A stretch of DNA of 49,090 nt from an uncultured candidatus Brocadiaceae bacterium (GTDB taxonomy: Bacteria; Planctomycetota; Brocadiia; Brocadiales; Brocadiaceae), in the NCBI GenBank assembly GCA_964370795.1, contig CAYJME010000002.1:9220-58309 (forward strand), in the 5' to 3' direction. The notes under the pieces were generated by a model, which saw nothing but the letters and a program-made list of their open reading frames with translations, was not told the origin of the DNA and made no database searches. Shown here in pieces: positions 1,918-48,830 of the stretch. Numbering within the stretch: the first letter of the stretch is position 1; the number at the start of each line of letters is the position of its first letter. A program made the translations under genes and the position numbers.

Positions 1918-3738
1918 CTATTTTTTGTTTTTTGTCTTTCCTGCAAGATAGATCATAAGTATGGAAATATCCGCAGGGGAAACACCGGAGATGCGGGAGG
2001 CGTGTCCTAAAGAAATGGGCTGTATCCGGGAAAGCTTCTGGCGTGCTTCTTTTCTCAATTCGGGGACGCTATCATAATCAATCCATGATGGAATTTTGTA
2101 ATCTTCCATCTTTTTAAACTTTTCTATCTGCTGCTGCTGCCTTTCTATATACCCTTTGTATTTTACCTCAATCTCTACCTGTTCTTTTACCTCCCTTGAT
2201 ATGTGTTGTTGACGAAGATAATCGTCCATATTGACGATATCTTCAAAGGTTCGATCGGGCCGGCTCAATATTTTTGCTAATGTGTCAGGCCCTGTCATTT
2301 TTTTATTTAAATACGTGAGCATCCCGGAAATCGCGCATTCCTTTTCGACTAATTTTTGCCACTGCTGGTCGGAAATAAGTCCGTAGCGGTATCCGTATTT
2401 CATCAACCGCCTGTCTGCGTTATCCTGCCTCAGGAGTAGCCGGTACTCTGCGCGCGAGGTAAACATGCGATACGGCTCTTGTGTACCTTTGGTAACAAGG
2501 TCATCAACAAGCACGCCAATATACGCCTCGGAACGATCCAGGATAAACGGTTCTTTCCCCTGAATTTTCAACGCCGCATTGATACCCGCCATAATGCCCT
2601 GAGCAGCGGCTTCTTCGTAACCGGACGTCCCGTTAATTTGGCCTGCATGAAAGAGGTTTTCTATTAGTTTCGTTTCTAAAGACGGTTTGAGTTGTATGGG
2701 CGGCACAAAGTCATACTCAATGGCATAGCCATATCGCACAATCTCTGCGGTTTCTAAGCCTTTTATTGAGTGAACGATTTCCTCCTGTACATCATGGGGC
2801 ATGCTCGTGGAAATCCCGTTACAATAAACCTCAAGGGTGTCAAGTCCTTCCGGCTCTAAAAATATCTGGTGTTGTTCCTTTCCTGAAAACCGTACAATTT
2901 TATCTTCCAAAGACGGACAATAGCGAGGCCCAATGGACTTAATCTGACCCGAGTACATTGGCGCACGGTTCAGGTTTGCCGTAATAATCTTGTGGGTGTC
3001 CGGATTCGTGTATGTTATATAGCAGGGAACCTGCAACCGGTCAATTTTTTCCGTGGAAAAGGAAAATGGTTGCGGATTTTCATCGCCATGCTGGGGAGTA
3101 AGTGTTTCATAATGTATTGTCCGGCCATTGAGACGCGGCGGCGTTCCCGTCTTGAGACGCCCTACCTCGAACCCAAGCTTTCGCAAAGAATCCGACAATT
3201 TTTCCGATGAAAGTTCCCCAATCCGTCCACCCGATGTAATATACTCGCCAATATGAATCAATCCCTTTAAAAACGTACCCGTAGTAAGGATGACGGTCTT
3301 TGTTTCGTATTTTAAGCCACTTTGACCTATGATACCCATTACTTTTCCATCACGTACCATAAGGCTATCAACAATTTCCTGTCTTAAAAAAAGATTAGCC
3401 TGGTGTTCCAACCTCTTTTTCATGGATAACTGGTAGGCCTTTATATCGGCCTGGGCACGGGGGGAATGGACAGCGGGGCCTTTTTTGGTGTTGAGCATAC
3501 GGAACTGGATTGATGTTTCATCGGTAACCTTTGCCATCTCGCCGCCGAGGGCGTCAATCTCCCGAACTAACTGGCCCTTTGCAAGACCGCCGATAGCAGG
3601 ATTACACGACATTTGCGCAATAGTATCGAGGTTAATGGTGAGCAGCGCCGTTCTCATTCCCATGCGGGCAGAGGCAAGGGCAGCCTCACAGCCGGCATGT
3701 CCGGCGCCAACCACAATTACATCAAAATCTTTTTGCAT
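1918..3738 (-). CDS. mnmG: tRNA uridine 5-carboxymethylaminomethyl modification enzyme MnmG (GidA)
   Basis: 606 aa. The N-terminal FAD motif is FDVIVVGAGHAGCEAALASARMG. The sequence resembles GidA along its full length (NPAIGGLAKG, TGTFL, GQINGTSGYEEAAAQG). Confidence 0.95.
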   Translation of the reverse strand: MQKDFDVIVVGAGHAGCEAALASARMGMRTALLTINLDTIAQMSCNPAIGGLAKGQLVREIDALGGEMAKVTDETSIQFRMLNTKKGPAVHSPRAQADIKAYQLSMKKRLEHQANLFLRQEIVDSLMVRDGKVMGIIGQSGLKYETKTVILTTGTFLKGLIHIGEYITSGGRIGELSSEKLSDSLRKLGFEVGRLKTGTPPRLNGRTIHYETLTPQHGDENPQPFSFSTEKIDRLQVPCYITYTNPDTHKIITANLNRAPMYSGQIKSIGPRYCPSLEDKIVRFSGKEQHQIFLEPEGLDTLEVYCNGISTSMPHDVQEEIVHSIKGLETAEIVRYGYAIEYDFVPPIQLKPSLETKLIENLFHAGQINGTSGYEEAAAQGIMAGINAALKIQGKEPFILDRSEAYIGVLVDDLVTKGTQEPYRMFTSRAEYRLLLRQDNADRRLMKYGYRYGLISDQQWQKLVEKECAISGMLTYLNKKMTGPDTLAKILSRPDRTFEDIVNMDDYLRQQHISREVKEQVEIEVKYKGYIERQQQQIEKFKKMEDYKIPSWIDYDSVPELRKEARQKLSRIQPISLGHASRISGVSPADISILMIYLAGKTKNKK

Positions 3739-3741
3739 ACA

Positions 3742-5298
3742 CTACTTGGCGTGTTCAACGAAGCGGGTCTCCCGGATAACGGTAACAACAACTTCTCCTG
3801 GATATTCCAGTTGTTCTTCGACTTCCCTCGCTATGTCATAGCACATCTTGGCGGCAACCTTGTCATTTACCTTTTCAGGACACACCAGGACTCGTATCTC
3901 TCTTCCCGCCTGAATGGCATAGGCACCCTCAACCCCGCTGAAAGCGGTGGCAATACTTTCGAGTTTCTCGAGGCGTTTGATATACTTCTCAAGGGTTTCT
4001 CTTCTCGCTCCCGGCCTGCCGGCAGAAATAGCGTCTGCGGCGCTCGTCAGCACAGTATAAACAGACTCGACAGGTTTTTCCTCATGATGCCCGCCAATTG
4101 CATTCACGACTTCCGGTCTTTCGTCATAGCGTTTCGCAAGGTCGGCGCCTGCTATCGCATGCGTGCCTTCCATCTCAGGGCCGATTGCCTTACCAATATC
4201 ATGCAACAAGCCGCATCGCTTGGCCAATGCAACATCAAGCTTCAGTTCACCGGCAAGAATACCCATGAGGTTGCTCACTTCGATGGAATGCTGCAACTGA
4301 TTTTGCCCATAACTTGTCCGGTATTTAAGCCGGCCAAGAAGTTTTATTATTTCCGGGTGTATATTATGAATCCCTAATTCAAAGCATGTTTGTTTACCCG
4401 TTTCCTGGATAATTTGTTCAATTTCCTTTTCCGTTTCTTTCACAACCTCTTCGATATGTGCCGGGTGAATTCTGCCATCAATAATCAATTTTTCCATAGA
4501 TTGCCGGGCTATTTCACGGCGGACACTATCAAAACCGGAAAGTACGATTACGCCGGGGGTATCATCTACAATAACGTCTATACCTGTCGCCTTTTCAAAT
4601 GCACGAATATTCCTGCCCTCACGCCCGATAATGCGCCCCTTCATTTCATTATTCGGAAGCTCAATGGCGCTGACAATGTTTTCTGCCGTATGGGTCGCAG
4701 CGCATCGCTGGATTGCGGTACTAATTAATGATACGGCCGTTTGTTCCGCATTTTCCTTTGCCTCGTTAATTTTGTGCACAATCAATTCGGAACATTTTAT
4801 TTCCAGCTCCTTTTCTAGCCGGCCCAATAAAAGTTTTTCGGCCTCCGTTTTTGATAAATCGGCCATTTTAAGAAGCGCCTTATTTTGCTCATCTATAGCC
4901 TTTTCCAGTTCCTGTTTCTTTTCGTCAAGCTTTTTTTCCTTCAGTGCAAAATTAGCCGTGAGGGTATCGATGTACCTTTCCTTCTTGGTGAGTAATTCCA
5001 TCTTACGCTCAAGGTTATCTTCCCTTTTGCTAAGCCTTTTTTCCTGTAACCGCAACTCCATCTTGGTTTCCTGAGTTTCCTTTTCAAATGACTCCCTGCG
5101 TTGATACAACTCGGCTTTCGTGGCAAGTTCTGCCTCCTTCTTGATCCTTTCGGCCTCACGTTGGGATTCTTCTAAAAGTTCCTTAATCCTCCTTTCGCTG
5201 GCTAATTGTTTTTTCTTGGAAACAACAATACAAATGAAGTAGCCAATACCAACGCCTACCGGAAGAAGGATGTACATCAATATTTGGAACAGCAGCAT
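3742..5298 (-). CDS. rny: Ribonuclease Y
   Basis: 518 aa. It has an N-terminal TM helix, a long charged coiled coil, a KH motif (GRIIGREGRNIRAFE) and an HD domain (LLHDIGKA). Its stop is 3 nt upstream of the mnmG start, so the two are probably co-transcribed. Confidence 0.95.
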   Translation of the reverse strand: MLLFQILMYILLPVGVGIGYFICIVVSKKKQLASERRIKELLEESQREAERIKKEAELATKAELYQRRESFEKETQETKMELRLQEKRLSKREDNLERKMELLTKKERYIDTLTANFALKEKKLDEKKQELEKAIDEQNKALLKMADLSKTEAEKLLLGRLEKELEIKCSELIVHKINEAKENAEQTAVSLISTAIQRCAATHTAENIVSAIELPNNEMKGRIIGREGRNIRAFEKATGIDVIVDDTPGVIVLSGFDSVRREIARQSMEKLIIDGRIHPAHIEEVVKETEKEIEQIIQETGKQTCFELGIHNIHPEIIKLLGRLKYRTSYGQNQLQHSIEVSNLMGILAGELKLDVALAKRCGLLHDIGKAIGPEMEGTHAIAGADLAKRYDERPEVVNAIGGHHEEKPVESVYTVLTSAADAISAGRPGARRETLEKYIKRLEKLESIATAFSGVEGAYAIQAGREIRVLVCPEKVNDKVAAKMCYDIAREVEEQLEYPGEVVVTVIRETRFVEHAK

Positions 5299-6009
5299 TT
5301 TATGATTATGAACCGATTTGTCGGGATCATCCTCCAGAAATGAATAAAAAATAACCGTTTTCTATTAAATGGGAAAGGTCGAGAAAATACAACAAATTGA
5401 TACTTTGGATGAGGTGAAACCTAATCGAAATGTCGGGTTGAACAGAACAGGGGTTGAACAGACGGGATCCGGGGAAGATTTCTTTTTAAAAAAAAGTACT
5501 TACATACGGCATCACAGTAATGATTAATATACCTGAGGAGCGTAACAGCAGTGTACCAGTTAAACCACCATTTTAATACCTTGCATCCCAAAGTAACCAT
5601 ACAGTACCTACGCAAGAATCTTTCTTCGAAGTCCACAAGAATTGTCCGGAAACGACCGTCAGCAAAACGTAAAACAACACATCGTATATGAAAAAAAACA
5701 AATCTTACAAGAAAACTATAGAAATCCATATGATATGCTGTTTTTTGTTCATTTTTCCAACTGTTCTGAATTGAAAAATTACTTACCATGAATGACATTT
5801 TCTTAGATTAAACCTTCTCAACCTTTTACAAAACCTGAAATAAATAACCCAGGCTGAACACTATCGAGCTTTAAATTTCCCGAAATTTTATCCTATATTT
5901 TTCATCAAGTCAAGTTATTTTATATCTTTATTAGTAAACGGTTTAAGAACGTGTTAATCACAAATAAAAACCCCCCGTTTTCGATATTTTATTGATATTT
6001 GCTTGATGC

Positions 6010-37118: not shown

Positions 37119-38300
37119 CTATCCAATATCCTCAAAACCTTTAAAATTAAAATTCCGTCCGGGAATATACGATAATCGCAAAAAAAATGACTTCGCATCA
37201 ACGGCATACCCGTGTTGCAAATCCAGGTTATGGAGAAAATGAAAGCCCAGTAAACGGACTCCATTCCCTTTTGAAGAATTAATAAATACGGGAGAGCCAC
37301 TATCGCCTTCGACAGTTTCGACATCACCCGTATACCTATATTTCCAAACAAATCCATAATCCATTCTTGCACCACCCAAGATAGGCGGTGAAAAGAAATC
37401 CACGCCGTCCATTAAATCAATATCCAGGCACTGAGCACCATCATTACGTTCAACCCATAGTAATCCGTTGGTATTTGTATCACGAATAGCAGCGTGAATA
37501 TCTTCGCTTGTGGCAATCTTGCCATCAAACCCACGAGGCCATAAGGTTTTCTCTGAAACAAATTCTTTTGGTATTTTAAAAAGCATGGCATCAGTAATGT
37601 GACTGTTTTTCATTATGTTTGTAGGGAGAAAACTATCCGAATAAATTTTAAACCATTGTCTCCCATGAAAACCTAAGGCACGATCACCATCGGGAGATCT
37701 ATAATTACCATTGGATACATCAATAAACACGTGGCCTGCGCTCGTTGCCCAATGGGTTCTGCCATTGTCCATAACAAGAAGTGATCCAACAGTGCCGATC
37801 ATTACCTTTTCTCCATCCTTAAAAGTCCCTGTATTTTCAGACACAGTTGAACGTCCAAAACCAAACCTTCTTCCTACATCGATGCGTTCAGCCGTAGGCC
37901 AATTTTGTTTCAATGTAGTCGAAAGGCTCGGTTGACCAACTTCCACGACATCAAGCAAAACACGTATTTTACCCTCACCAGGAATACATATAACCAGATA
38001 TTTGGGGATTCTCTCTCTTCTGGACAAATTATCAGGACGACGTTTTTTGTCGACAAAAACTTTGATACAAAGTCCACCTGCAGATTTTGATAGTGGCGCA
38101 TAGCGTCTTTCTTTTTCCTTAAACTTACGACCAATTCCAAGCCCACACACTCCAGGTAATTGTGCAAACCTATGAGAAGCTGTCTGATAAGCTATTTTTA
38201 AGTCAGGATATCTCCTCAACCACATATTTATCTGCCTACCAGGACGATAGTAATTCCTTTCATCAGATTGCTTCAATGAACGTTTTTTTACTGCACACAT
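37119..38300 (-). CDS. Trypsin-fold (S1/PA clan) serine peptidase with ~160-aa N-terminal extension, no signal peptide
   Basis: 393 aa. The ordered triad contexts are TSAGH190VF, ITD237AMLFKIP and EGDS334GSPVF. The H-D and D-S spacings are 47 and 97 residues, close to chymotrypsin numbering. Its start is 13 nt after the upstream lipoprotein stop. Confidence 0.8.
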   Translation of the reverse strand: MCAVKKRSLKQSDERNYYRPGRQINMWLRRYPDLKIAYQTASHRFAQLPGVCGLGIGRKFKEKERRYAPLSKSAGGLCIKVFVDKKRRPDNLSRRERIPKYLVICIPGEGKIRVLLDVVEVGQPSLSTTLKQNWPTAERIDVGRRFGFGRSTVSENTGTFKDGEKVMIGTVGSLLVMDNGRTHWATSAGHVFIDVSNGNYRSPDGDRALGFHGRQWFKIYSDSFLPTNIMKNSHITDAMLFKIPKEFVSEKTLWPRGFDGKIATSEDIHAAIRDTNTNGLLWVERNDGAQCLDIDLMDGVDFFSPPILGGARMDYGFVWKYRYTGDVETVEGDSGSPVFINSSKGNGVRLLGFHFLHNLDLQHGYAVDAKSFFLRLSYIPGRNFNFKGFEDIG

Positions 38301-38313
38301 GCCACTTCTCGCA

Positions 38314-39810
38314 TTAGTAAAGATCGCTAATAGGTAACTGAATGATTATTACAACACCTTTGTCGGGAAATTCTACTTGTATTATTTCTTTGTTGGTAAT
38401 TTTATCCTTACCGAGCGAATTCTGTATCCACTCTTTGAATTTATCCTCTTTTTTTTCGTCTGGAGTAAGGTCGCGCGGAAGATTACCAATAGTAATTGTA
38501 GTTGTGTTTGTCTTCTTATCAGCCTTTATCCTCTCTTTAAAGACATTAGTCAATTCAGGGCTAAAATATTTATCAAGACCCGTTCTTAAAGTTTCTTCTA
38601 TCTTACCTTTTGCTTGCTCTATCGGATCTTTTCCACCATCTCCACCTGTAGTTTGTGAACCTTCAAATTCTGCAAGCCTCACTGTTGCTGGCAGGATAAA
38701 TACATCCGTCGTGGCATTAAAAGCAATCATCGTAAATGGTGGGCATGGTATAAACGCCATATCCTGACGAATCCACGGTGCTTGTGACTGCAATAGGAAT
38801 GAACTGAATGCTACATCTTCATCTGGTCCGGCAACTATACCACTATATTTTAGCCATTGTTTTATTTCGCGCGGTTTTAGAACAGGATACAAACCCGGCT
38901 GTGCAATTTTTACTTCTGCAATCTTAAAAACAAGCATATTACCCAAATAATCCTTTATTTCTTCCGGCTTAGATACACCAATTTCTCTGGCTTCCGCTCT
39001 AAAACCGGCCGGCTTTAACATCTTTGAAATTGAAGGCACAGGAGGCAAACCGGCCACGAGCGGAGCCCATGTTGTAACAATACCCGATGCAACTTCAGAG
39101 GCCTTTTCAAACTGATTTATTACATAGGGCACTAGGTTTGAATTGTCCACCTTATTAGAAAATACCTCTGCTGCCCAGCCGTTGCGGAGTTTCGTTTCTA
39201 TCTCCGCGCTACCCAATCCCGTATGCGGTTGAATAATATATTGCTCTTCGAAATCTGGCAAATATACCACATCCATACGGTCTCCAAGGCGTGTCACAGG
39301 ATCGGTGGTATTAATAAAACCTGTCTGTGCATGCAACTCGCTTGGTGGTTTCGCTTCCGGTTGTGGTTGTGGTTGTTCCTTTGGTTTTTCTCCAGTTTCT
39401 GCCCCACCGGCTGTTCCTTTTTCTTCCTTTACCCCTGCAGCAGCTTTTTGTTCATGTTCTCTGCCGGACAATGTTAAAGCAAGTGCCTGGGTAACCGATA
39501 ACTTTTCAGGTAACGCTTTTTTCAACCAAGTCGGTGCATTTTCCGGTTTATCTACCACATATCCCTTTGTACTTTCGTCATAGTGAAAACTTATGAGTGC
39601 AACCCTTTGAGCAACTGGTACTGATTGTTTTAAATGGAGAAACGGGCGCGGGAGATAATAGCGGACACCTTTCATCGAGTCAGCCTTTTTTTGCTGTTCA
39701 TCGGTCCAATTCGAGTATTGCGTTGGTGTCGGTACCTTCACGTAATCGAGACGTGCACAACCAAACATTACTAACACAAACAGTAAAAGCACAGACAAAA
39801 ACATTCGCAT
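38314..39810 (-). CDS. Large lipoprotein of unknown function with Pro/Gln/Glu/Lys-rich linker
   Basis: ATG 39810 is preceded by GAGGAGG. The leader MRMFLSVLLLFVLVMFGC is a lipoprotein-type signal ending G-C. A low-complexity KPKEQPQPQPEAKPP segment is present. About 498 aa, with no motif I can name. Confidence 0.75.
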   Translation of the reverse strand: MRMFLSVLLLFVLVMFGCARLDYVKVPTPTQYSNWTDEQQKKADSMKGVRYYLPRPFLHLKQSVPVAQRVALISFHYDESTKGYVVDKPENAPTWLKKALPEKLSVTQALALTLSGREHEQKAAAGVKEEKGTAGGAETGEKPKEQPQPQPEAKPPSELHAQTGFINTTDPVTRLGDRMDVVYLPDFEEQYIIQPHTGLGSAEIETKLRNGWAAEVFSNKVDNSNLVPYVINQFEKASEVASGIVTTWAPLVAGLPPVPSISKMLKPAGFRAEAREIGVSKPEEIKDYLGNMLVFKIAEVKIAQPGLYPVLKPREIKQWLKYSGIVAGPDEDVAFSSFLLQSQAPWIRQDMAFIPCPPFTMIAFNATTDVFILPATVRLAEFEGSQTTGGDGGKDPIEQAKGKIEETLRTGLDKYFSPELTNVFKERIKADKKTNTTTITIGNLPRDLTPDEKKEDKFKEWIQNSLGKDKITNKEIIQVEFPDKGVVIIIQLPISDLY

Positions 39811-40064
39811 AATATATACCCTCCTCACCCAAACAAGTCGGAAAAAATATCAATACCCACAAACCATTCTTTAACGTTTCAACAGCTACCATTTCTTACG
39901 ATCATGTTAATTGCTTTAAGTACAGTATCATAAATACCCTAGCACTGCAAAGCCGCAATTAAATTCTTCAGGCAAAAGAAACAACCCTCAAAGTCCTTCC
40001 CGGTCTAAAGGAGATTTCCCGTATCAAAGGGAGTGAAGGAGTATAAAACAAATGGCAAACACCG

Positions 40065-40156: not shown

Positions 40157-41362
40157 CTATGCTTCGAATTGAGCTTCTAAGAACACTTTCCACCGTCCGT
40201 TCTTGCTGAAGGATAGATCGCTGTAATCCGGCGCATAGTCCTCCTTACGCGGAAAATAAATCGAGACTCCTTTTGCCCTCGCGACATTATTCCCGCACGT
40301 GGCATTTCGAACTACAAGACTATCCCTGTTTGCAGGATCCAGAGCATTCGTAATCTTGTTAGCGACATCCCTTACTGCTGCATTTTGAGGTATACGCTGA
40401 ATGATTTGCTTTGCGAAATCACCAAGATCAATATACTCCGGCATCTCGAATTTCTGAGCACGATCGCGTGCCAGACTAACGGCGCCAGCCACATTGCTGA
40501 GGTCAGCAAGAAGGGCATCGGCCAACTCGCTCACCAATGCTGACACAGCTTGAATTTGACTAAGATCCAAGGCAGATTGTGTGGCCGTTTCCCCCGTCTT
40601 TTGATAGTATTTCTGATATTCATCAACGATCGTCTTTGTCAAATCAGAAGGACTCATAGTTGGTTTAGCCACCAACAACTTTAAAATTGCCGCGTATGGC
40701 CAACCTGCATTAGGCTCAGTCTCCTCGGAACCAACCATGAAGTTTGCTGTTTCCTTTAACTCGTATGCAATCTCCATCATATTCATCAGACAAGCGTCAC
40801 AACCGAGGATATCGAGTTTTTGGCCGTTCGGTAGCGCATTGAGTATTCCATTACGTAGTTCCTGATTGTCAAGGTAATCGTGCGATCCGCAATCTATAGC
40901 AATAGCACGTGCTTCAGCAGGGCGGTTGTGAACCTTCAGCACGGTGGTACGGAACAGCGCACGTTTGATTCTGTTTAGCTTGGCCGCTGCTTGCGGTTTG
41001 ACTAAGCGAATGTTGGCATAATTGTAATCAGAAGGCAGATTTTCCCAACCACCGCCATGGTTCCACACATCGAGCAAGTACCGCTGTGCCGGATAATTTT
41101 TTATTCCCCACTGGATAAACTCTGTTAAAATTTTGGGATCACCGCAATTTACACCGGGTAATTTCTGAGCTACCATTAACTTCCCTTTCTCAACCCGGTA
41201 GCGGGTAGTCTCGTTTTCCTCTGTATCGAACTGGACGATAACATTCACGTCGGCTGTCGAACCAACCTGCTTCATTTCTTCCAAATCATCCTTGCCGGCA
41301 CCTTCCAAGTTGTTATCTCCTGCCATGTAAACCAGCCATGTCCATTGTGCAATTTTATTCAT
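40157..41362 (-). CDS. Clostripain-family (C11) cysteine peptidase, no signal peptide
   Basis: ATG 41362 is preceded by AAGGAG with 8-nt spacing. The C11 hallmarks are WTWLVYMAGDNNLEG, catalytic His context LLDVWNH102GGGW and Cys context LGCDAC191LMNM. Confidence 0.85.
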   Translation of the reverse strand: MNKIAQWTWLVYMAGDNNLEGAGKDDLEEMKQVGSTADVNVIVQFDTEENETTRYRVEKGKLMVAQKLPGVNCGDPKILTEFIQWGIKNYPAQRYLLDVWNHGGGWENLPSDYNYANIRLVKPQAAAKLNRIKRALFRTTVLKVHNRPAEARAIAIDCGSHDYLDNQELRNGILNALPNGQKLDILGCDACLMNMMEIAYELKETANFMVGSEETEPNAGWPYAAILKLLVAKPTMSPSDLTKTIVDEYQKYYQKTGETATQSALDLSQIQAVSALVSELADALLADLSNVAGAVSLARDRAQKFEMPEYIDLGDFAKQIIQRIPQNAAVRDVANKITNALDPANRDSLVVRNATCGNNVARAKGVSIYFPRKEDYAPDYSDLSFSKNGRWKVFLEAQFEA

Positions 41363-41428
41363 AGTAAAATTCTCCTTTTTCTGTTGAATAGGATTTAACC
41401 AAAAATGAAACATATTAAATTTAGAGGG

Positions 41429-41698: not shown

Positions 41699-42439
41699 TT
41701 AAAGTTCCTGCACATACACCTTGCCTTCTTTATACTTCTGACAGCCAATACTTTTATGCCTGCATTCAAGAACCTCTTTCATTCCTTTTAAATTTTCAAG
41801 CATATGTTCACGCAATCCTGGCTCAACGAGACCTAAAAAGTTACCTATTACAACACCACCGCCTGACGGTTCACTGTATAATTCATAAATTACTTTAACT
41901 TCATTTGTCGTGATCGGAATAAGCTCCCATTTACCATATAACTTCTCAATCCTATTATACTCAGGATCTTTCGGGACAAGATCATATGCGCTTGTGATGC
42001 TGATTGTTACCACCTTTGTTGTAATATCTTGCAATCTCGTATCACGCACAACAGAATCATATTTGCTTGTAATAAAAACCCCCTTTTTTTCTGTTTTAAA
42101 TTGTTTGACACTCTCATTTTTAGTATCATCTTCAGAAACTTTCCTTCCTTCAACACAATTATGCATCCATAAATGACTCACTTCTGTGTCTTCCAATAAT
42201 CGAATGATGCTATTTAAAGTTGTTTTAATGGTAACAACACCTTTACAATCTTGAAATTTAGCGCCTTCTACGATGCTTTTTCTGTTAAACATTTCAACTC
42301 CATTGCTATTTTCCATCGGAACTTTTTCCCACCCTGTATCTGGTTTGATCAAAAAAGGATTTTGAATTCCCTGCGCATGTGCATTTGCAGGAATAGCCAA
42401 TAAAAAAACTGCTAGTATTAAAGACCACCTTATATTCAT
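41699..42439 (-). CDS. Secreted START/SRPBCC-like (lipid-binding fold) protein
   Basis: The internal ATG at 42439 gives a Sec-type signal peptide, MNIRWSLILAVFLLAIPANAHA. The mature part resembles START domains (GWEKVPMENSNGVEMFNRK..., LLEDTEVSHLWMHNC, YGKWELIPITTNEVKVIYELYSEPSGG). The longer ORF to 42643 would read through a terminator-like hairpin. Confidence 0.55.
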   Translation of the reverse strand: MNIRWSLILAVFLLAIPANAHAQGIQNPFLIKPDTGWEKVPMENSNGVEMFNRKSIVEGAKFQDCKGVVTIKTTLNSIIRLLEDTEVSHLWMHNCVEGRKVSEDDTKNESVKQFKTEKKGVFITSKYDSVVRDTRLQDITTKVVTISITSAYDLVPKDPEYNRIEKLYGKWELIPITTNEVKVIYELYSEPSGGGVVIGNFLGLVEPGLREHMLENLKGMKEVLECRHKSIGCQKYKEGKVYVQEL

Positions 42440-42612
42440 GGACACCTTCACAAGAAAATTCCCTCCATAATTTATAGTGAATAGGTAAATTTTCACCAAA
42501 TTAGCACAATTTTTATTTTTCAAAATAGCGCGATGCATTCTAGCCACTATAAGACGAGTAATATCACTATTGCCATAAGCAACTTTTATCATATCTATGA
42601 CAGCATTAAAAT

Positions 42613-42641
42613 GCGGGAACAGGTTGCAAACCCGCTCCCGC
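42613..42641 (-). terminator. Terminator-like hairpin, family copy 2
   Basis: GCGGGAACAGG-TTGCAAA-CCCGCTCCCGC. The two mismatches are A-C on the plus strand but become G-U wobbles in a minus-strand transcript. It lies about 35 nt after the stop at 42674 and is followed on the minus strand by ATTTTAAT. Confidence 0.5.
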
Positions 42642-42673
42642 ATTGGAGCTGTACCCTTAAATATAGTTAACGT

Positions 42674-43186
42674 TTAAGCAGCAACCTTTATGGCGATATT
42701 TGCAGCAGTAATTGCAACATTAATAACTGTATCCAGAATATCTTTTGCCAGTTGACGTTGAGCAATTTCCTGATCAGCACCCTTCAGAAAATTCGATATT
42801 TGGGAAATTTCATCATCAGGAAGTAATTGAGGAATATTTTCAAATACTTCGTTTTCTGTTATTAACCCTAACGCATCTCCTAATGCAGTTCTTTGATCCT
42901 CAATATTCAATGCAGTCGCTTTAGACAATGGATGAGTACTAGATGCTGCATTAACCATTAACTCCGTAAGCGCATTATCCATTGATACAATGGCATTTCT
43001 CTTTTCTTTATTATTTGTTAAAGTTTTTGAATTAGCTTCCGAAACAAACTTTTTTAAAAGCTCAATCACAGCATTTTCATCACTTTTATCAGCTTTATTT
43101 TTATTATCTTTAATCAGTTCAAACAAATTTACAAAAATAGGTACAAGGTCTTTGCCTATTTTTATTAAGTCATTTAAATTTGACAT
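42674..43186 (-). CDS. Hypothetical all-helical protein with hydrophobic C-terminal segment
   Basis: 170 aa with an AGGAGG Shine-Dalgarno site at 7-nt spacing and no signal peptide. The C-terminus is ILDTVINVAITAANIAIKVAA. The coding sequence is very AT-rich. Confidence 0.6.
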   Translation of the reverse strand: MSNLNDLIKIGKDLVPIFVNLFELIKDNKNKADKSDENAVIELLKKFVSEANSKTLTNNKEKRNAIVSMDNALTELMVNAASSTHPLSKATALNIEDQRTALGDALGLITENEVFENIPQLLPDDEISQISNFLKGADQEIAQRQLAKDILDTVINVAITAANIAIKVAA

Positions 43187-43206
43187 GATAGTAGCCTCCT
43201 GTCTTA

Positions 43207-43866
43207 TTAGCTAACTTTTTTATATACTTTTATTAATATATCACGGGACCGTTCAATCGTTTTCTGAATCCTCTCATTTTCCTTTCTTCTTTCTTCTTCT
43301 GACCTCTTGTCAATTTGTCCAAGTTCTTCTTGTAGACTGCGGATGGCAGAAACAGTCATAACAACGCCATCAATATCAAAACTCCTAAGGACAAATTCAG
43401 CATCAGAACTACTTAAATACTTTACAATTATGTCATTGTTTTCTTTTAACGTTTTTACTGCATCTATGAGTGCTTTGTATGATTTCAATATTATTTCTTT
43501 TCTCGCTTCGTTTATTTGAATATCTGAAAGGTTTATTACCTCCTCAAGGTTGATTTCTGCTAATTTCATGGAGAGCAATCTTTGATTTCCAGTTACATTT
43601 GCATCAACTTGAAGTAAGACCTCAGCCTTCTTTAAATCACGCTCCCATGTTAGCAAATCAAGTTCACGTTTTTTGTCAGCCTTAAGCTGATCATTTAAAG
43701 AAATTTCTATATCATTTTTATTTTCCTCTAATAAATTTTTTAATTTACTGTAATATTCATCTTGCTTTTTACTTAATTCAGTCACATTTGATCTGCTCAT
43801 AGCACAACCTGTTGTCAAACTTAAGGACAGAAAAATACAGAAAATTATTATTTGTTTGACATTCAT
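43207..43866 (-). CDS. Coiled-coil lipoprotein of unknown function
   Basis: 219 aa. The leader IIIFCIFLSLSLTTGC ends G-C, and the rest is charged and heptad-like. Its ATG overlaps the upstream stop (ATGA at 43863-43866). Confidence 0.7.
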   Translation of the reverse strand: MNVKQIIIFCIFLSLSLTTGCAMSRSNVTELSKKQDEYYSKLKNLLEENKNDIEISLNDQLKADKKRELDLLTWERDLKKAEVLLQVDANVTGNQRLLSMKLAEINLEEVINLSDIQINEARKEIILKSYKALIDAVKTLKENNDIIVKYLSSSDAEFVLRSFDIDGVVMTVSAIRSLQEELGQIDKRSEEERRKENERIQKTIERSRDILIKVYKKVS

Positions 43867-44576
43867 TTTTTATTCTCCTTATCAATTTCATCGATAGCAT
43901 CAGTAATATTTTTTTGGAGTGCATTTACCTGGTCTTGTGTAGGTGACACATCAATAGCTAACCACGAATCTACTTTTCCGTGCATTACTTTCATCAAAGC
44001 TACTTGTTTTCTGAGAATTTCAAGCATAAGATGTGTCCTTTCAGCAGTATTAGCCTCATTCTCAAAAGCTGCTTTGTATATAGACTCTGTTTTTTCAACT
44101 TCTAGAGGTTTAGGAGGCAATGTAGACTTAATGGTTTTTAAATCATTGCGGCAGTGTATTAATGATGCTTTTAATTTTTCATTATCAGTAGAATTTATTT
44201 TTTCTTCCAGTCTTTTGATTTCTGCATCAAAATCTATAAATGCATAATCTATCCATGGTTGAATGTTCTTATCATAACTTAGGAATAGATTGTCAGCATT
44301 GACAGTAGTACTCGTCCCAGGAATAGCAGCCTCTATAGCTTTTTGCGCAATGCGCATCCTTCCCGTTTCAATAATACGATCCTGTTTTTGTTTGTGAAAC
44401 TGATCAAAAGATGTTTGTAGGTTAACAACTGCGTCATCAACAGCCTTAATCAGCTCTATCTGTGCCTTTGACGCATTTTTTACTTCAATAGGCGTAGCAC
44501 ATCCTTGCATCAACATCGCAGTAGCTAGCAAGCTTGGCAATGCAATGCATGAAACGTGTTGTTTTCGTCTTACCAT
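43863..44576 (-). CDS. Coiled-coil lipoprotein of unknown function
   Basis: ATG 44576 is preceded by AAGGAG at 9-nt spacing. The leader is MVRRKQHVSCIALPSLLATAMLMQGC, and the remainder is helical and charged. The ORF-track start at 44603 is a TTG. Confidence 0.7.
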   Translation of the reverse strand: MVRRKQHVSCIALPSLLATAMLMQGCATPIEVKNASKAQIELIKAVDDAVVNLQTSFDQFHKQKQDRIIETGRMRIAQKAIEAAIPGTSTTVNADNLFLSYDKNIQPWIDYAFIDFDAEIKRLEEKINSTDNEKLKASLIHCRNDLKTIKSTLPPKPLEVEKTESIYKAAFENEANTAERTHLMLEILRKQVALMKVMHGKVDSWLAIDVSPTQDQVNALQKNITDAIDEIDKENKK

Positions 44577-44663
44577 AACGTTTCTCTCCTTTAATTTATT
44601 CAAACTTGTATGAGTCCATCTATCGGTTTTGGTAGAGTTGAAAGGTTACAACTATTTCACCAT

Positions 44664-45503
44664 CTAAATAGTAAATGGCACTTGTTTCTCAAATGTACGG
44701 TTAATCTCCCCTACGCGGAAATAATTGGGCGACTGATAGGGAGGCATACGACGACCTATGGCACGCCAGAAGGCGCGATATCCCTTTCTTTTATATTTGC
44801 CTTCATTCCAAACATTCAAGAGCTTTGAGGTAAACAAACCATTAAACGTACCATCAGCAGAATATTGGTTATCCTGACAACCCGATATGAGAAGCACAGA
44901 TGCCTTTACTGCATCACTCGACTCCTTTAATTTTGCATCTTTCAATATAGGGTCATAAAACTTTTTATTATCCCTGTATACCCGTGGTGCAATTTCCAAT
45001 GGCATACACCGATATCGGGTTTCCGGGGAAGTCCCTGTCATACCGAGAGAGTTCATTATCGATCGAAAATGCACATCCTTTGTTACCGTACCGCTGTGAC
45101 AACTATCGGAAAACACTACAACGCGCACACCCTGTGCAAATTTCCCCAGTAAGGCGTAAATCTCATCGTCTACAAGTTCGCCATCGTACAAACACCACGT
45201 CTCATCCTGGGCATCGTCCTCATCGTCGTTTAAATCAGGAAGTTGACCGCCATGACCGGAATAGCTCAGCATAAAGATATCACCGGATGTTAACGTACTT
45301 GTCGCCTTATTAACCGAATCAAACATGTTTGCCCTTGTGGCTGCTTTCGTAAGGAGGGTTTTTACATCAAAACCTTTCGATTTTACAATCTCCGCCATAT
45401 CATTTGCATCATTTTCGCATGCATTCAGTTCCCCCGACCATCCACTATATTTTGCGGGATCAACTGCGTTTAAACCGATTGTTAACGCCATGCCTTTTGC
45501 CAT
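44664..45503 (-). CDS. Caspase-like (C14, orthocaspase/metacaspase-type) cysteine peptidase, single domain
   Basis: 279 aa with an AGGAGG Shine-Dalgarno site. The His context is FMLSYSGH84GG and the Cys context VVVFSDSC135HSGT. An acidic insert (LNDDEDDAQDETW) lies between them. No signal peptide. Confidence 0.9.
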   Translation of the reverse strand: MAKGMALTIGLNAVDPAKYSGWSGELNACENDANDMAEIVKSKGFDVKTLLTKAATRANMFDSVNKATSTLTSGDIFMLSYSGHGGQLPDLNDDEDDAQDETWCLYDGELVDDEIYALLGKFAQGVRVVVFSDSCHSGTVTKDVHFRSIMNSLGMTGTSPETRYRCMPLEIAPRVYRDNKKFYDPILKDAKLKESSDAVKASVLLISGCQDNQYSADGTFNGLFTSKLLNVWNEGKYKRKGYRAFWRAIGRRMPPYQSPNYFRVGEINRTFEKQVPFTI

Positions 45504-45787
45504 GTTACACCTCCTGTATTATTTTTCATGAATTTTAAGTAAAGTTTAGTATTGTTTTGTAAATACTTACTTTTTACAATTTTTTAACAACCCCTTTTAT
45601 GGTAATTTATTTACAGCTTGTTGCGTTATGCATTTTAATACTTTTTTTTAATAAAATGCAAACTATAAAACATTTGTTCGTATTATTTTTATTCCTCCTT
45701 TCCAGTACAATCTGTATTGTTTTTGATTTTTTTATTAAACAAGCTTTTTGTTACTAATTTTATAGTTACCTCTAGCAGATATCACAA

Positions 45788-48379
45788 TTAAACTATTTCT
45801 TCCAACAACTTTTCAGAAACACATTCTTTTATAATTTCACTCAAATTTACGCCAAACACCTCCGAAAATTTTCTATAAGTTTCTGCCTGTGCAAAGTAAT
45901 TGAGATGATAGACATGTTGATTTGGATCGAACGTAAAGTTGTTTCCACTATTAACGCCTCTTGGCCACGGAACTACCATTTTGTCTGTATCGACTATGAG
46001 ATCATTGGGATCGCCAAAAAAGGCATCGGCAATTCTATCAATGATATCGTCTTTGATACCGCCCTGGAGAGCACCCGTCGGCTCATAGTTTGATCCAATG
46101 GTATTGTAGGTAACCGCCCCATTCAAGATCTCGCTGCTTTGGTTCAATTTTTTAATAAAATCTGAACACGGATTCATTGCCCAAACACCAGGCACTGCAT
46201 GCGGGTCTTCTAATTTTGAAGCGGCAAACTTCACCAGCCCTCCTACAATACTAAAGAATATCTTAAACGCAATATTGGGCGTTAAAAAAAAGACATTTGT
46301 CAAAAGGTTTATCATCCGGGAAAGTGAAGTCCATTTCCCTGGATTTGCCAAATTGGTTCCCCCGGCAGGACATGCAACCATGAGCACCTTATCAACATAA
46401 CTGCAACCACCAACAATCTCCACAAAAGACCTTAATACAAGCCCACCACGGCTGTGCGTTATACAGTCGAATTTCAATCCGGTATCTAAAAGACCTTGAT
46501 TCTTTAGTTCCTCCAACATGTTATTGGCATTCTCTTCGGGAGTCTTGGATAAGGTAAAGTGGTCGTATCCCAAAATAAGGGGATAGCGATTTGTTAACGT
46601 TTCCAGGATTTTCGGCTGCACATATTCATACCCACCTGCAAGCGAACTAGCCGTACCATGAATAAAAAGAAGCGCCCTTTTGTTATCTTTCACCAAATCT
46701 TTGATACTACCCCAATCTGAGATGGGGCTGGACTGTGTAAGACTTTCGACAAAGCCTTTACGTGGGTCAATTCGTTTAAAACCTTCATTCATCACGTTTT
46801 TTTCATATGCATTTAACATGGCACAGATAGCAGCAGAACTACCATCCTGTATCCAATCTTTTGCGAATTTAAAGACGTACACCACATTACTCCACAGACC
46901 TCTTGTCGTTGTATCCTGCACCTTAAATGGAACAGTAAATGATCTAATATCTTCTTTATCACTGATTATTAAATCTTTACCATGTGGATTCTCTACATCT
47001 TTAAAGTGCCAAGTCCATACTCCATCTTCGTACGATAAGAGCACAGCCTCTTCGTCTGGATTACATCTGATCGCAAGCTGAATTGGTTTCACAGCCTCTT
47101 CAACTCCAAGCGAGCGCTGTTCATTTGGGCAAAATTCGATGGCGTGGGTCATTTGGAAATCTTTGTTTTCCAGGAAATCCAGGCATCCTGGTTGGTAAGT
47201 GTCACCCAGTGCATCACGACGCCCTTCCGAATCTTTTGATTTCGCCAATTCCGTGAAGTCTCTTACCGTCCCGACAAATTCAGACGTAGAAGGCAGGACA
47301 ATATCCCGGGAAATGGCACATTTCGAGCGTTTTGTGGAAACGAATATGCGTTTTGCGGCCTTAGAGAATATGGCAGGAGAACCTTCCTTCTTTTTCAAGT
47401 CTTGATCAGAATCGGCGGCTGGTTTCTCAGTGACAGCACAACCTTTTGCCGGATGTCCTTCTTTGTATACGAGAAGATGGCCATACTCACAGGTTGGCTC
47501 ATCCTTTAATGAAGCGGAAAGAAACCTCATAGCCCTTAATTCCTTGTTACCATTTAACTGAGGAATCTGGCTGAAAGAGTTAAACGCAAGACTATTTCTC
47601 ACTTTTGTTATAAGGTCTTGACAGGTTATCAACCCTCTCGTATCCCGTATCGTTTTACACAGGTTATACGTAAAGGCGCCGTTGTAATCATTATTGATAT
47701 TCGCGTCAACTGAGGTTTGGTCATCCATACAACCGGCTAATAATACGTGCTTCGCTTCGGCATTATTCCCGCCATCTCCGGTTTTTTTGTCCTCCTTGAT
47801 TTTAGAACCAAGACGATTAACCTTTACTGATTTACTATAACTCCTCAATGCAATATCGGCTGGCGGCTCTATAAAGCGGGGCTGCAGTTTTCTCTCCCCC
47901 ATTGGGATTCCTAATTCAGACGTTAGGAATTCAAGGTCACGGGTTGCGGTACCCGAATGGCACGAATCAAGACAAACGGTGAGATAAACCCCCTTGGGCA
48001 AGCGGTCAATGATATCGTTAAAGTCATCGTCAAGCAGGTAGGAATCCGGGTTCCTGAAATCCATATCGTATAAACACAAGATTTCGTCCATACCGTCATC
48101 CAGTTCATCGCCATTGCGGTCTTGAATCTGTGAACCATGTCCTGAAAAGTGAAATAACAGTAAATCTCCAGCCTGTACGCCGTCTAAAAGCCAATCGAAC
48201 CGATTCATCAGGTTATTCCGGGTAACCGCCTCGTCCGTAAGGGAGCGAATTTCTTCAGAGGAAAATCCATAGAAACTGGTGAGTATATCTGCCATATTGC
48301 GGACGTCATTAATACACCCATTGAGGGGCCTGACATTTTTGTATTTATTAACCCCAACTAATAATGCCTTTTTTGCCAT
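45788..48379 (-). CDS. Caspase-like (C14) domain fused to a C-terminal alpha/beta-hydrolase (lipase/esterase-like) domain
   Basis: ATG 48379 is preceded by AAGGAG at 8-nt spacing, and the TTG at 48403 is the longest ORF. The N-terminus shows LLLFHFSGHG and VCLDSCHSGT. The C-terminus shows ALLFIHGTASS and the elbow CITHSRGG (Ser codon at 46451-46453). VACPAGGT, NDLIVDTD and HVYHLNYF are further candidate hydrolase residues. Confidence 0.9.
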   Translation of the reverse strand: MAKKALLVGVNKYKNVRPLNGCINDVRNMADILTSFYGFSSEEIRSLTDEAVTRNNLMNRFDWLLDGVQAGDLLLFHFSGHGSQIQDRNGDELDDGMDEILCLYDMDFRNPDSYLLDDDFNDIIDRLPKGVYLTVCLDSCHSGTATRDLEFLTSELGIPMGERKLQPRFIEPPADIALRSYSKSVKVNRLGSKIKEDKKTGDGGNNAEAKHVLLAGCMDDQTSVDANINNDYNGAFTYNLCKTIRDTRGLITCQDLITKVRNSLAFNSFSQIPQLNGNKELRAMRFLSASLKDEPTCEYGHLLVYKEGHPAKGCAVTEKPAADSDQDLKKKEGSPAIFSKAAKRIFVSTKRSKCAISRDIVLPSTSEFVGTVRDFTELAKSKDSEGRRDALGDTYQPGCLDFLENKDFQMTHAIEFCPNEQRSLGVEEAVKPIQLAIRCNPDEEAVLLSYEDGVWTWHFKDVENPHGKDLIISDKEDIRSFTVPFKVQDTTTRGLWSNVVYVFKFAKDWIQDGSSAAICAMLNAYEKNVMNEGFKRIDPRKGFVESLTQSSPISDWGSIKDLVKDNKRALLFIHGTASSLAGGYEYVQPKILETLTNRYPLILGYDHFTLSKTPEENANNMLEELKNQGLLDTGLKFDCITHSRGGLVLRSFVEIVGGCSYVDKVLMVACPAGGTNLANPGKWTSLSRMINLLTNVFFLTPNIAFKIFFSIVGGLVKFAASKLEDPHAVPGVWAMNPCSDFIKKLNQSSEILNGAVTYNTIGSNYEPTGALQGGIKDDIIDRIADAFFGDPNDLIVDTDKMVVPWPRGVNSGNNFTFDPNQHVYHLNYFAQAETYRKFSEVFGVNLSEIIKECVSEKLLEEIV

Positions 48380-48419
48380 AGTCCTTTCTCCTTTTTTAGT
48401 CAAAAAATAGTGGATAGCT

Positions 48420-48536: not shown

Positions 48537-48830
48537 TTACAAATTTTTCTTTACGAACGACTTTATCTTCTCATACTCATCCCGGTTGATCTGATAATAG
48601 GTATGAACATTTTTGCCTTGCTGTTCCACCAGAAGACCTTTATCAACAAGGTCTTCAAGCGCTTCTTTTACCACATTTACCTGGTGTTTAATTTTTTGTT
48701 CCAACAACCACCATTCTATAATTCCATCAATGCTATCCCTGGCATCCGGATGTTCAACCAGGTATGACAGGATTTCATTGCAAATGTGTGACTTTTCATT
48801 ATTGTTGAGATTGTCAGGGGTGGTTTTCAC
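48537..48830 (-). CDS. Small winged-helix-like protein (putative regulator or adaptor)
   Basis: 97 aa with a GTG start after GAGAGGA. The helical N-terminal half (ICNEILSYLVEHPDARDSIDGIIEWW) and the C-terminal EALEDLVDKGLLVEQQGKNVHTYYQIN resemble the recognition helix plus wing of MarR/DUF-type wHTH proteins. Confidence 0.55.
   Translation of the reverse strand: MKTTPDNLNNNEKSHICNEILSYLVEHPDARDSIDGIIEWWLLEQKIKHQVNVVKEALEDLVDKGLLVEQQGKNVHTYYQINRDEYEKIKSFVKKNL

Follow-up and report, generated by a model that had tools for sequence, protein, structure and literature searches.

In the protease-effector defence modules described to date, caspase-like or trypsin-like proteases activate adjacent effectors of the MBL, alpha/beta-hydrolase and Pepco types and of the EACC1 type (Kaur et al. 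2020, PMC7159879; Evans et al. 2025, bioRxiv 10.1101/2025.11.14.688446), and experiments have shown an unfused caspase/alpha-beta-hydrolase pair to be a death effector activated by proteolysis (Evans et al. 2025). A 49,090-nt stretch of DNA from a candidatus Brocadiaceae bacterium, an anammox planctomycete (the whole stretch is called here the window), carries a gene cluster that invites comparison with these modules: the stand-alone orthocaspase gene casp279 is followed by the genes lipoA, lipoB and tail170 (together, the triad), which encode two predicted lipoproteins and a helical protein (Table 1). The likenesses are that a caspase-like protease gene adjoins genes for small non-enzymatic proteins; that casp871, the gene upstream of casp279, is a caspase/alpha-beta-hydrolase combination, here fused; and that the enzymes encoded near the triad in this and other genomes (caspase, CHAT, patatin, metallophosphoesterase, alpha/beta-hydrolase) resemble the effector repertoire. 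Unlike the known modules, the triad falls outside the described families (MBL, alpha/beta-hydrolase, Pepco, EACC1, gasdermin, CATASP and MPE, in Pfam, NCBIfam and PADLOC scans), the only link to them being the DUF7379 part of casp871; two of the three triad proteins are predicted to be exported lipoproteins; there is no sensor NTPase or sensor domain; and the adjacency of a protease to the triad is not conserved. The caspase-triad junction is a lineage-specific mosaic within an accessory island, and the locus is an uncharacterised module of moderate interest rather than a demonstrated caspase-substrate operon. The explanation that we favour, and to which we give an even chance, is that two separate modules lie side by side in this island, and that the triad is an autonomous unit of foreign composition, horizontally transferred as a block, which would act as a constant envelope-associated partner of lytic effectors.

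When about 17 other triad loci were searched with casp279 and casp871 (tblastn), no C14 caspase gene was found next to the triad in any of them; the co-conservation of caspase and cassette in other genomes, which an earlier note on this DNA had proposed as a check, did not appear. Because the triad lacks a caspase in all the other loci examined, casp279 is not a dedicated processing enzyme of the triad. The caspase-led operon described in the earlier note fared no better: no RNA-derived contig bridges the gap between casp279 and lipoA, and the junction is confined to the window lineage and to an approximately 94%-identical strain from a sludge metagenome, which keeps casp279 and the triad, lacks casp871 and diverges immediately upstream of the caspase start. 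Since it is kept in that strain and absent from the other loci, the junction is stable at short evolutionary range only.

The alternative to be weighed here is a dedicated protease-effector operon, in which casp279, co-transcribed with the triad, would activate by cleavage the only substrate within its reach, a cytoplasmic tail170; a cut near the invariant R144/K148 might free the C-terminal amphipathic helix and permeabilise the membrane, with the lipoproteins as envelope partners. Such a mechanism would be akin to that of EACC1, activated by a caspase, or of gasdermin, activated by a protease. The layout agrees with this, as the four genes share one strand and have good ribosome-binding sites, the 87-nt gap between casp279 and lipoA contains no stable hairpin and no terminator (fold z = +0.55), and a single terminator follows the last gene; yet GC content at third codon positions (GC3) breaks exactly between the caspase and the triad, and two of the three triad proteins are predicted to be exported. 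Persistence of the junction in the related strain without casp871 also favours the operon, as does the presence of a CHAT protease (L033) or C1 peptidases (L018, L035) beside the triad at independent loci; against this, cysteine peptidases are absent from the surroundings of the triad in at least nine usable contexts, and the L033 CHAT gene is 1.8 kb off, behind a 273-nt spacer. Small membrane effectors that are activated by a caspase have experimental precedent, and so does the pairing of a single effector type with several protease classes, but the triad has no PADLOC match, and the residues around R144 recur at a spacing of 3-4, as expected of a helix-packing face, and are equally invariant in caspase-less loci. 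If the topology that we infer is right, a cytoplasmic casp279 could not reach the exported lipoproteins. We therefore regard such an operon as doubtful, and the annotation "caspase plus substrates", tempting as it is, is shown to be unsafe. Nor does the locus correspond to the EACC1-caspase system: there is no minus-strand open reading frame (ORF) of at least 20 aa in 45504-45787, hence no EACC1-like gene 5' of casp279, and casp279 scores 29.7 bits against the caspase_w_EACC1 model NF047832 (cut-off 140). When the regions upstream of lipoA were aligned across loci, the ribosome-binding site alone was conserved, so that no promoter could be inferred upstream of this gene; a sigma-54 promoter pattern was dropped, its frequency being at chance level.

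Gene order at the other loci suggests how the junction arose. A homologue of p97 (39% identical; L013, 1079-1345, on a contig of GC 0.55) abuts lipoA, a homologue of p391 abuts tail170 in L010, and a homologue of p148 follows the triad in Candidatus (Ca.) Brocadia carolinensis (L007); p97, p391 and p148 are small ORFs of the accessory island. In the window, the two caspase genes, whose GC3 is like that of the host, sit between p97 and lipoA, and START-like, C11, p504 and trypsin-like genes sit between tail170 and p391. The simplest reading suggested by this comparison is that the caspases came in next to a p97-triad-p391/p148 backbone already in place, the reverse of the direction proposed in the earlier note, in which an AT-rich cassette had been joined to a caspase. 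The p97 protein may be a regulator belonging with the triad.

The mosaic origin itself is supported by base composition together with the lack of a caspase at every other triad locus. The triad has a GC content of 0.334, compared with a mean of 0.415 (standard deviation 0.033) for windows of the same size over the 49 kb, and the lowest-GC 1.9-kb windows of the entire 49 kb all begin at 42.0-42.5 kb. GC3 is 0.199 in tail170, 0.264 in lipoB and 0.269 in lipoA, against 0.414 in casp279, 0.417 in casp871, 0.465 in the C11 gene and 0.40-0.53 in housekeeping genes; as the drop is also seen at synonymous and third codon positions, the break is not an amino-acid artefact. The sharp change of composition inside the gene cluster, first estimated from hand-counted samples, is thus borne out by the computed profile (GC3 0.20-0.27 versus 0.41). 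The sample of about 52% GC at 45001-45060 was exact (0.517), but it falls on a local maximum: over its entire length the caspase gene has a GC content of 0.438. Low GC is not confined to the triad: the block takes in the START-like gene (GC3 0.29) as well as an 86-aa membrane ORF and ends at about 41.4 kb, and low GC3 recurs at p391 (0.34) and p148 (0.28). Elsewhere, triad homologues occur in hosts of 0.30-0.68 GC and follow the local GC, indicating that the family is not intrinsically AT-rich; AT-rich copies are limited to the Brocadiaceae type (the window, L010 and L007).

The triad loci identified (approximately 17 independent ones) come from Brocadiaceae, Gammaproteobacteria and unassigned metagenome contigs, and in every sufficiently long locus the order lipoA-lipoB-tail170 is constant (three family hidden Markov models, approximately 17 non-redundant contexts). 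The only exception to the joint occurrence of the three genes is a lipoA homologue (50% identical) at 10001-10693 of L015, a 65-kb contig without lipoB or tail170. In a collection of 5.8 billion proteins, 5 homologue clusters were found for tail170, 44 for lipoB and 30 for lipoA, with no Pfam domain and no informative name; an exhaustive profile search of 1.84 billion representatives gave 101 lipoA matches at E <= 1e-3, 46 of them at E <= 1e-30, so the lipoA family is rare. The remote lipoA matches have no Pfam family in common and were discarded as a functional clue. A pattern-based scan detected lipoB in no more than three of 185,579 species genomes (Ca. Brocadia carolinensis, an uncultured proteobacterium and a Woeseiaceae metagenome-assembled genome), and tblastn with lipoB gave no match among 50,697 phage records and 72,556 plasmids, nor was a relative found in IMG/VR. 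Exact copies of the window proteins are present on ENA metagenome contigs of up to 167 kb, and the region is contained in DNA runs on metagenomes of sediment, sludge and biofilm. Two housekeeping proteins of the window, the Lon protease and adenylosuccinate lyase, belong to 90% clusters that bear the name Candidatus Brocadiaceae, which, with the triad relative in Ca. Brocadia carolinensis, identifies the host as an anammox planctomycete. Searches of the literature on orthocaspases and anammox, DUF7379, and lipoprotein/patatin/CHAT neighbourhoods found no description of the triad. Three conserved protein families are defined here, with their boundaries, invariant residues and phyletic spread. 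In Ca. Brocadia carolinensis (L007, AYTS01000157, 1338-2735), lipoA and lipoB are each frameshifted, through pseudogenisation or assembly error. A 300-344-aa protein with three predicted transmembrane segments (3-TM protein) and no Pfam match is encoded at L018 2314-3216, L020 9169-10155, L022 9182-10216 and L036 4914-5909; it adjoins the triad in three high-GC contexts that are independent of one another, has no counterpart in the window, and may be a fourth component in the high-GC clade.

Very low GC, the lack of any annotation, and the stop-free frames expected in biased DNA could suggest that the three ORFs are spurious, that is, non-coding AT-rich DNA. This is refuted by full-length homologues with an invariant lipobox Cys in hosts across the 0.30-0.68 GC range, by conserved order and spacing, and by dN/dS values, relative to the closest relative (L010), of 0.18 for lipoA, 0.13 for lipoB and 0.30 for tail170, which place the triad genes under purifying selection. 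RNA-derived contigs from two wastewater runs, 92-95% identical to the window, cover tail170, lipoB, lipoA and the caspase gene, and a metatranscriptome contig of depth 18 spans 42659-43061 (tail170); these contigs are modest evidence of expression, in a related strain. The non-coding status that the earlier note had named as a way to overturn its reading is thereby set aside.

The sequence features of Lgt/LspA substrates (a positive N-terminal charge, a hydrophobic core and an invariant Cys closing the lipobox) are present in the lipoA and lipoB products, which are accordingly predicted to be lipoproteins, as the earlier note had proposed from their leaders. In lipoA, Cys26 is invariant in 26 homologues, within G-C-A-T-P-I-E-V-K, and is preceded by Gly in 25 of the 26; in lipoB, Cys21 is invariant in 27 homologues, with Gly or Ala before it in all 27, and a KAEVLLQ motif is conserved. 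In both, a hydrophobic stretch precedes the lipobox, which at -3/-2 conforms less strictly to the E. coli consensus. The alignment of tail170 (11 homologues) shows no signal peptide and a conserved Ala/Ile/Thr-rich C-terminal helix. The hydrophobic tail previously ascribed to tail170 therefore exists as a C-terminal segment, but its hydrophobicity is borderline for a transmembrane segment: the best 19-residue Kyte-Doolittle window reaches 1.59 in the copy of the window, and the mean over the last 23 residues is 0.45-1.27 in the family, with conserved Lys, Asn and Asp at a spacing of 3-4. The C-terminus is an amphipathic helix rather than a classical tail anchor. The label "coiled-coil" is not supported either, since the proteins are all-helical and yet their hydrophobic periodicity has its maximum at 3.7-3.75 residues instead of 3.5; the safer wording is "amphipathic helical bundle".

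No relative of known function was recovered for the three families by the kinds of search that the earlier note had suggested. Scans of the three proteins against Pfam, NCBIfam, PADLOC and PHROG gave sub-threshold noise only, PDB profile searches with the three family alignments gave nothing meaningful, and hhalign among the families gave probabilities of at most 8%, that is, no relationship, so lipoA and lipoB are not detectable paralogues. Matches to NGK_0946 and to Lpp/OprI were rejected, as they span little beyond the signal peptide and lipobox. AlphaFold2, given a 27-sequence alignment, models lipoB as wholly helical, the helices being long (pLDDT 74, pTM 0.55); its model of tail170 has five helices at low confidence (pLDDT 51). 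Foldseek, run with the lipoB model against PDB and BFVD (predicted viral structures), returned generic helical bundles only (best E = 0.07, TM <= 0.40). Long-helix, all-alpha proteins of about 170-240 residues with membrane activity (ClyA-type toxins, PspA/IM30/ESCRT-III, BAR, Borrelia helical surface lipoproteins) are among these top matches, all insignificant (E >= 0.07, TM <= 0.40), as in a generic helical-bundle resemblance; for lipoB, ClyA gave E = 0.24 and TM = 0.23, PspA/IM30 gave E = 0.15, and there was no Pfam match. Phage spanins and lysis lipoproteins are no closer, with no PHROG match for the triad.

The neighbourhoods of the triad were then compared in about 13 contexts with usable flanks, counting degradative enzymes within a few kb and with no matched background. 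Such enzymes are found in 7 of the approximately 13: in the window, two C14 peptidases, an alpha/beta-hydrolase, a C11 peptidase and a GDSGSP serine-protease-like protein; in L007, Lipase_3, Metallophos, a Tle1-like DUF2235 protein and a relic caspase N-terminus; in L018, a phospholipase C, a C1 peptidase and a chagasin-type inhibitor; in L019, EEP; in L020 and L022, a 1630-aa patatin protein behind the conserved 3-TM protein; in L032/L033, a CHAT protease, a 136-aa gene and a 350-aa gene before the triad and a later M14 (in L032); and in L035, C1, patatin, DUF6765 and EEP. The L033 CHAT gene (3-1676; clan CD, PF12770, E = 1e-64) is upstream of the triad on the same strand, followed by the rest at 1949-5420 with spacings of 273, 54 and 23 nt (136-aa gene, 350-aa gene, triad); it gives the triad a further neighbour from the caspase superfamily, independent of the first. 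Cysteine peptidases other than C14 (CHAT, C1) adjoin the triad in 3 of the approximately 13 contexts. The relic caspase N-terminus of L007 (9046-9126; MGKRALLVGINKYKYVTSLNGCVNEVG*) comprises 27 codons and a stop, is 69% identical to the casp871 start and lies just upstream of the Tle1-like DUF2235 hydrolase. The DUF6765 protein of L035 (4738-5697) is weakly similar to zinc-dependent phospholipase C (E = 0.019), a hint that it may be a phospholipase. Two further assignments were dropped: the partial gene upstream of lipoA in L010 as an alpha/beta-hydrolase C-terminus (no Pfam match, and unlike casp871), and the 136-aa protein of L032 as PLAT-like (no Pfam support).

With so small a number of contexts, the enrichment of hydrolases around the triad is no more than suggestive. 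The neighbouring enzymes are not orthologues of one another, and shared ancestry therefore does not explain the pattern; most of them have no signal peptide. The same diversity of unrelated, non-orthologous families can also be read as pure juxtaposition, the triad being an envelope structural or stress set unrelated to proteases and lipases, carried in fast-turnover islands rich in secreted and toxic enzymes. Its patchy distribution and its foreign composition in Brocadiaceae fit this, as do the remaining contexts, which hold housekeeping genes (L025), insertion-sequence elements (L016/17), a histidine kinase (L038) or very short flanks. We rate mere juxtaposition as a serious alternative, though an unlikely one, given that some uncommon families turn up more than once and independently (patatin, C1 and EEP twice each, clan-CD peptidases in two lineages), that several such genes cluster in single loci (4 of the 5 called neighbours in L035 carry such a domain), and that spacing on the same strand is tight in L033 (23 and 54 nt) and in L020/L022.

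Immunity proteins against periplasm-acting lipases, as in the Tle/Tli systems, are typically lipoproteins. The triad resembles these pairs in that periplasm-facing lipoproteins are encoded beside phospholipases, and lipid-hydrolysing enzymes are its commonest neighbours, including the Tle1-like DUF2235 protein of Ca. B. carolinensis; by analogy, the lipoproteins might shield the membranes of the producer from phospholipases and proteases of neighbouring genes. Each known immunity protein, however, is matched to a single effector family, and one constant triad would have to face patatin, phospholipase C, alpha/beta-hydrolases and proteases, most of them without a signal peptide. No type VI or other secretion-system genes were seen at the triad loci, no similarity to known Tli families was found in the Pfam, NCBIfam and PADLOC scans, and the cytoplasmic tail170 would be left without a role, so that self-protection of this kind appears very improbable.

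In the explanation that we favour, the first module would be a cytoplasmic stand-alone orthocaspase of the GSU0716 family, with host-like codon composition, encoded behind the caspase/alpha-beta-hydrolase fusion gene. In the second module, the lipoA and lipoB proteins would be exported, lipid-anchored and facing the periplasm, most likely as a helical heteromeric complex, and tail170 would remain on the cytoplasmic side, where it could bind the inner membrane peripherally through its C-terminal amphipathic helix. Recurring beside interchangeable, mostly signal-peptide-less cysteine proteases and phospholipases, the triad would be the constant partner of lytic effectors; its role could be to detect or cushion damage to the envelope or membrane, or to assist in targeting the lytic enzymes, and the caspases of the window would be one of several swappable effector sets. 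A looser functional link of the triad to degradative enzymes is plausible. Several observations weigh against this explanation: the usable contexts number about 13, 7 of them with hydrolases, and the pattern could also come from hitch-hiking in variable islands; neither sequence nor fold resemblance points to a mechanism; the topology of tail170 rests on a low-confidence model, the polarity of its last helix is too high for a classical transmembrane anchor, and, were the protein tail-anchored, hardly any of it would reach the periplasm, leaving its coupling to the lipoproteins unexplained; and casp279 stays beside the triad in the approximately 94%-identical strain even without casp871, with no terminator between them, so that the genes may well be co-expressed locally. 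A bolder proposal, which we consider rather unlikely, makes the triad the core of an undescribed conflict or cell-death system with interchangeable cytoplasmic C14/CHAT/C1/C11 proteases and patatin, phospholipase C or alpha/beta-hydrolase enzymes; the triad would then sense envelope damage and license the enzymes, or tail170 would be a membrane-permeabilising effector released by the protease.

The caspases themselves belong to described types. The casp279 protein matches Peptidase_C14 (PF00656) with 100.2 bits (cut-off 21.4; E = 1.9e-28) and is 59% identical over its full length (279 versus 277 aa) to the stand-alone metacaspase-like protein GSU0716 of Geobacter sulfurreducens (PDB 3BIJ), with which it shares the His/Cys motifs and the single-domain architecture. 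It is, by homology, an ordinary member of a known stand-alone orthocaspase family and a predicted protease, without notable difference from GSU0716 as a protein. The neighbourhood differs, the triad not being detected in Geobacter in the pattern-based species-genome scan; since the lipoB matches of that scan exclude Geobacter, the GSU0716 family appears to exist without the triad. The alpha/beta-hydrolase part of casp871 (DUF7379, THSRGG elbow, 160 bits) places this fusion in a known type of module that has been characterised by experiment; one metagenome assembly (L001) has the gene in two parts, of 633 + 211 aa. The two caspases had been taken for paralogues from their near-identical starts. 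They are indeed homologous, but casp279 and the caspase domain of casp871 are 34% identical, which does not support a recent duplication, and the similar N-termini (MAK..AL..G.N) reflect the conserved first beta-strand of the fold.

The gene structure of the cluster agrees with the earlier description: all four minus-strand ORFs are present, the YSGHGG and DSCHSG motifs are found in the casp279 translation, and the spacings of 87, -4 and 20 nt (caspase-lipoA, lipoA-lipoB, lipoB-tail170) are correct. An SD-like (Shine-Dalgarno-like) aggagg lies 6 nt 5' of the casp279 ATG. For lipoA, the ATG at 44576 is preferred over the TTG at 44603 of the mechanical ORF list, because AAGGAGAGAAA precedes it; this choice agrees with the N-termini of the homologues and with independent 237-aa gene calls. 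The lipoB start and the lipoA stop overlap by 4 nt (ATGA), and the two genes are translationally coupled through this overlap. The terminator-like hairpin after tail170 is real, with a folding energy of -35.1 kcal/mol (z = -5.15; none of 200 shuffles as good), although the sigma-70/terminator consensus scan, otherwise uninformative, overlooked it. In one RNA-seq-derived contig, from a related strain, 146 nt (45520-45667) of the AT-rich spacer upstream of casp279 are absent, an indel polymorphism.

Table 1 Features of the orthocaspase-triad locus and neighbouring genes (positions in the 49,090-nt window).
Feature	Position	Strand	Description
p97	48537..48830	-	Small winged-helix-like protein; weak helix-turn-helix-type matches only
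casp871	45788..48403	-	871-aa fusion of C14 caspase, DUF7362 and DUF7379; directly upstream of casp279
casp871/casp279 spacer	45504..45787	-	AT-rich, GC 0.236; presumed promoter region of casp279
casp279	44664..45503	-	Stand-alone orthocaspase (Peptidase C14); His85 in YSGHGG, Cys135 in DSCHSG; no signal peptide
Caspase-lipoA spacer	44577..44663	-	87 nt; ends in conserved ribosome-binding site AAGGAGAGAAA
lipoA	43863..44576	-	237-aa predicted lipoprotein; signal peptide, then GC26-ATPIEVK; all-helical
lipoB	43207..43866	-	219-aa predicted lipoprotein (LTTGC21); all-helical
tail170	42674..43186	-	170-aa acidic helical protein; no signal peptide; C-terminal amphipathic helix ~149-170
Terminator-like hairpin	42603..42644	-	Intrinsic type; 16-bp stem, 3-nt loop, then UUUUAAU; closes the triad transcription unit
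START/SRPBCC-like ORF	41699..42643	-	Called 314 aa, start within the triad terminator hairpin; real start probably Met69 (~42439), then signal peptide (MNIRWSLILAVFLLAIPANAHA)
Clostripain-like C11 protein	40157..41413	-	Same island; no signal peptide
504-aa lipoprotein	38314..39828	-	Between the C11 and GDSGSP genes; PQPQPE low-complexity linker
393-aa protein	37119..38300	-	GDSGSP serine-protease motif; no Pfam match

Anammox bacteria are available neither in pure culture nor with genetics. Even on a sober reading, the locus leaves three conserved families without a Pfam, NCBIfam, PADLOC, PHROG or PDB counterpart. If the triad truly partners proteases and lipases that can be swapped, the protease-gated death and defence modules would gain a lipoprotein component anchored in the envelope, the components of such modules described so far being cytoplasmic or integral to the membrane, and the region of the window would become a candidate programmed-lysis or defence island for the anammox bacteria.

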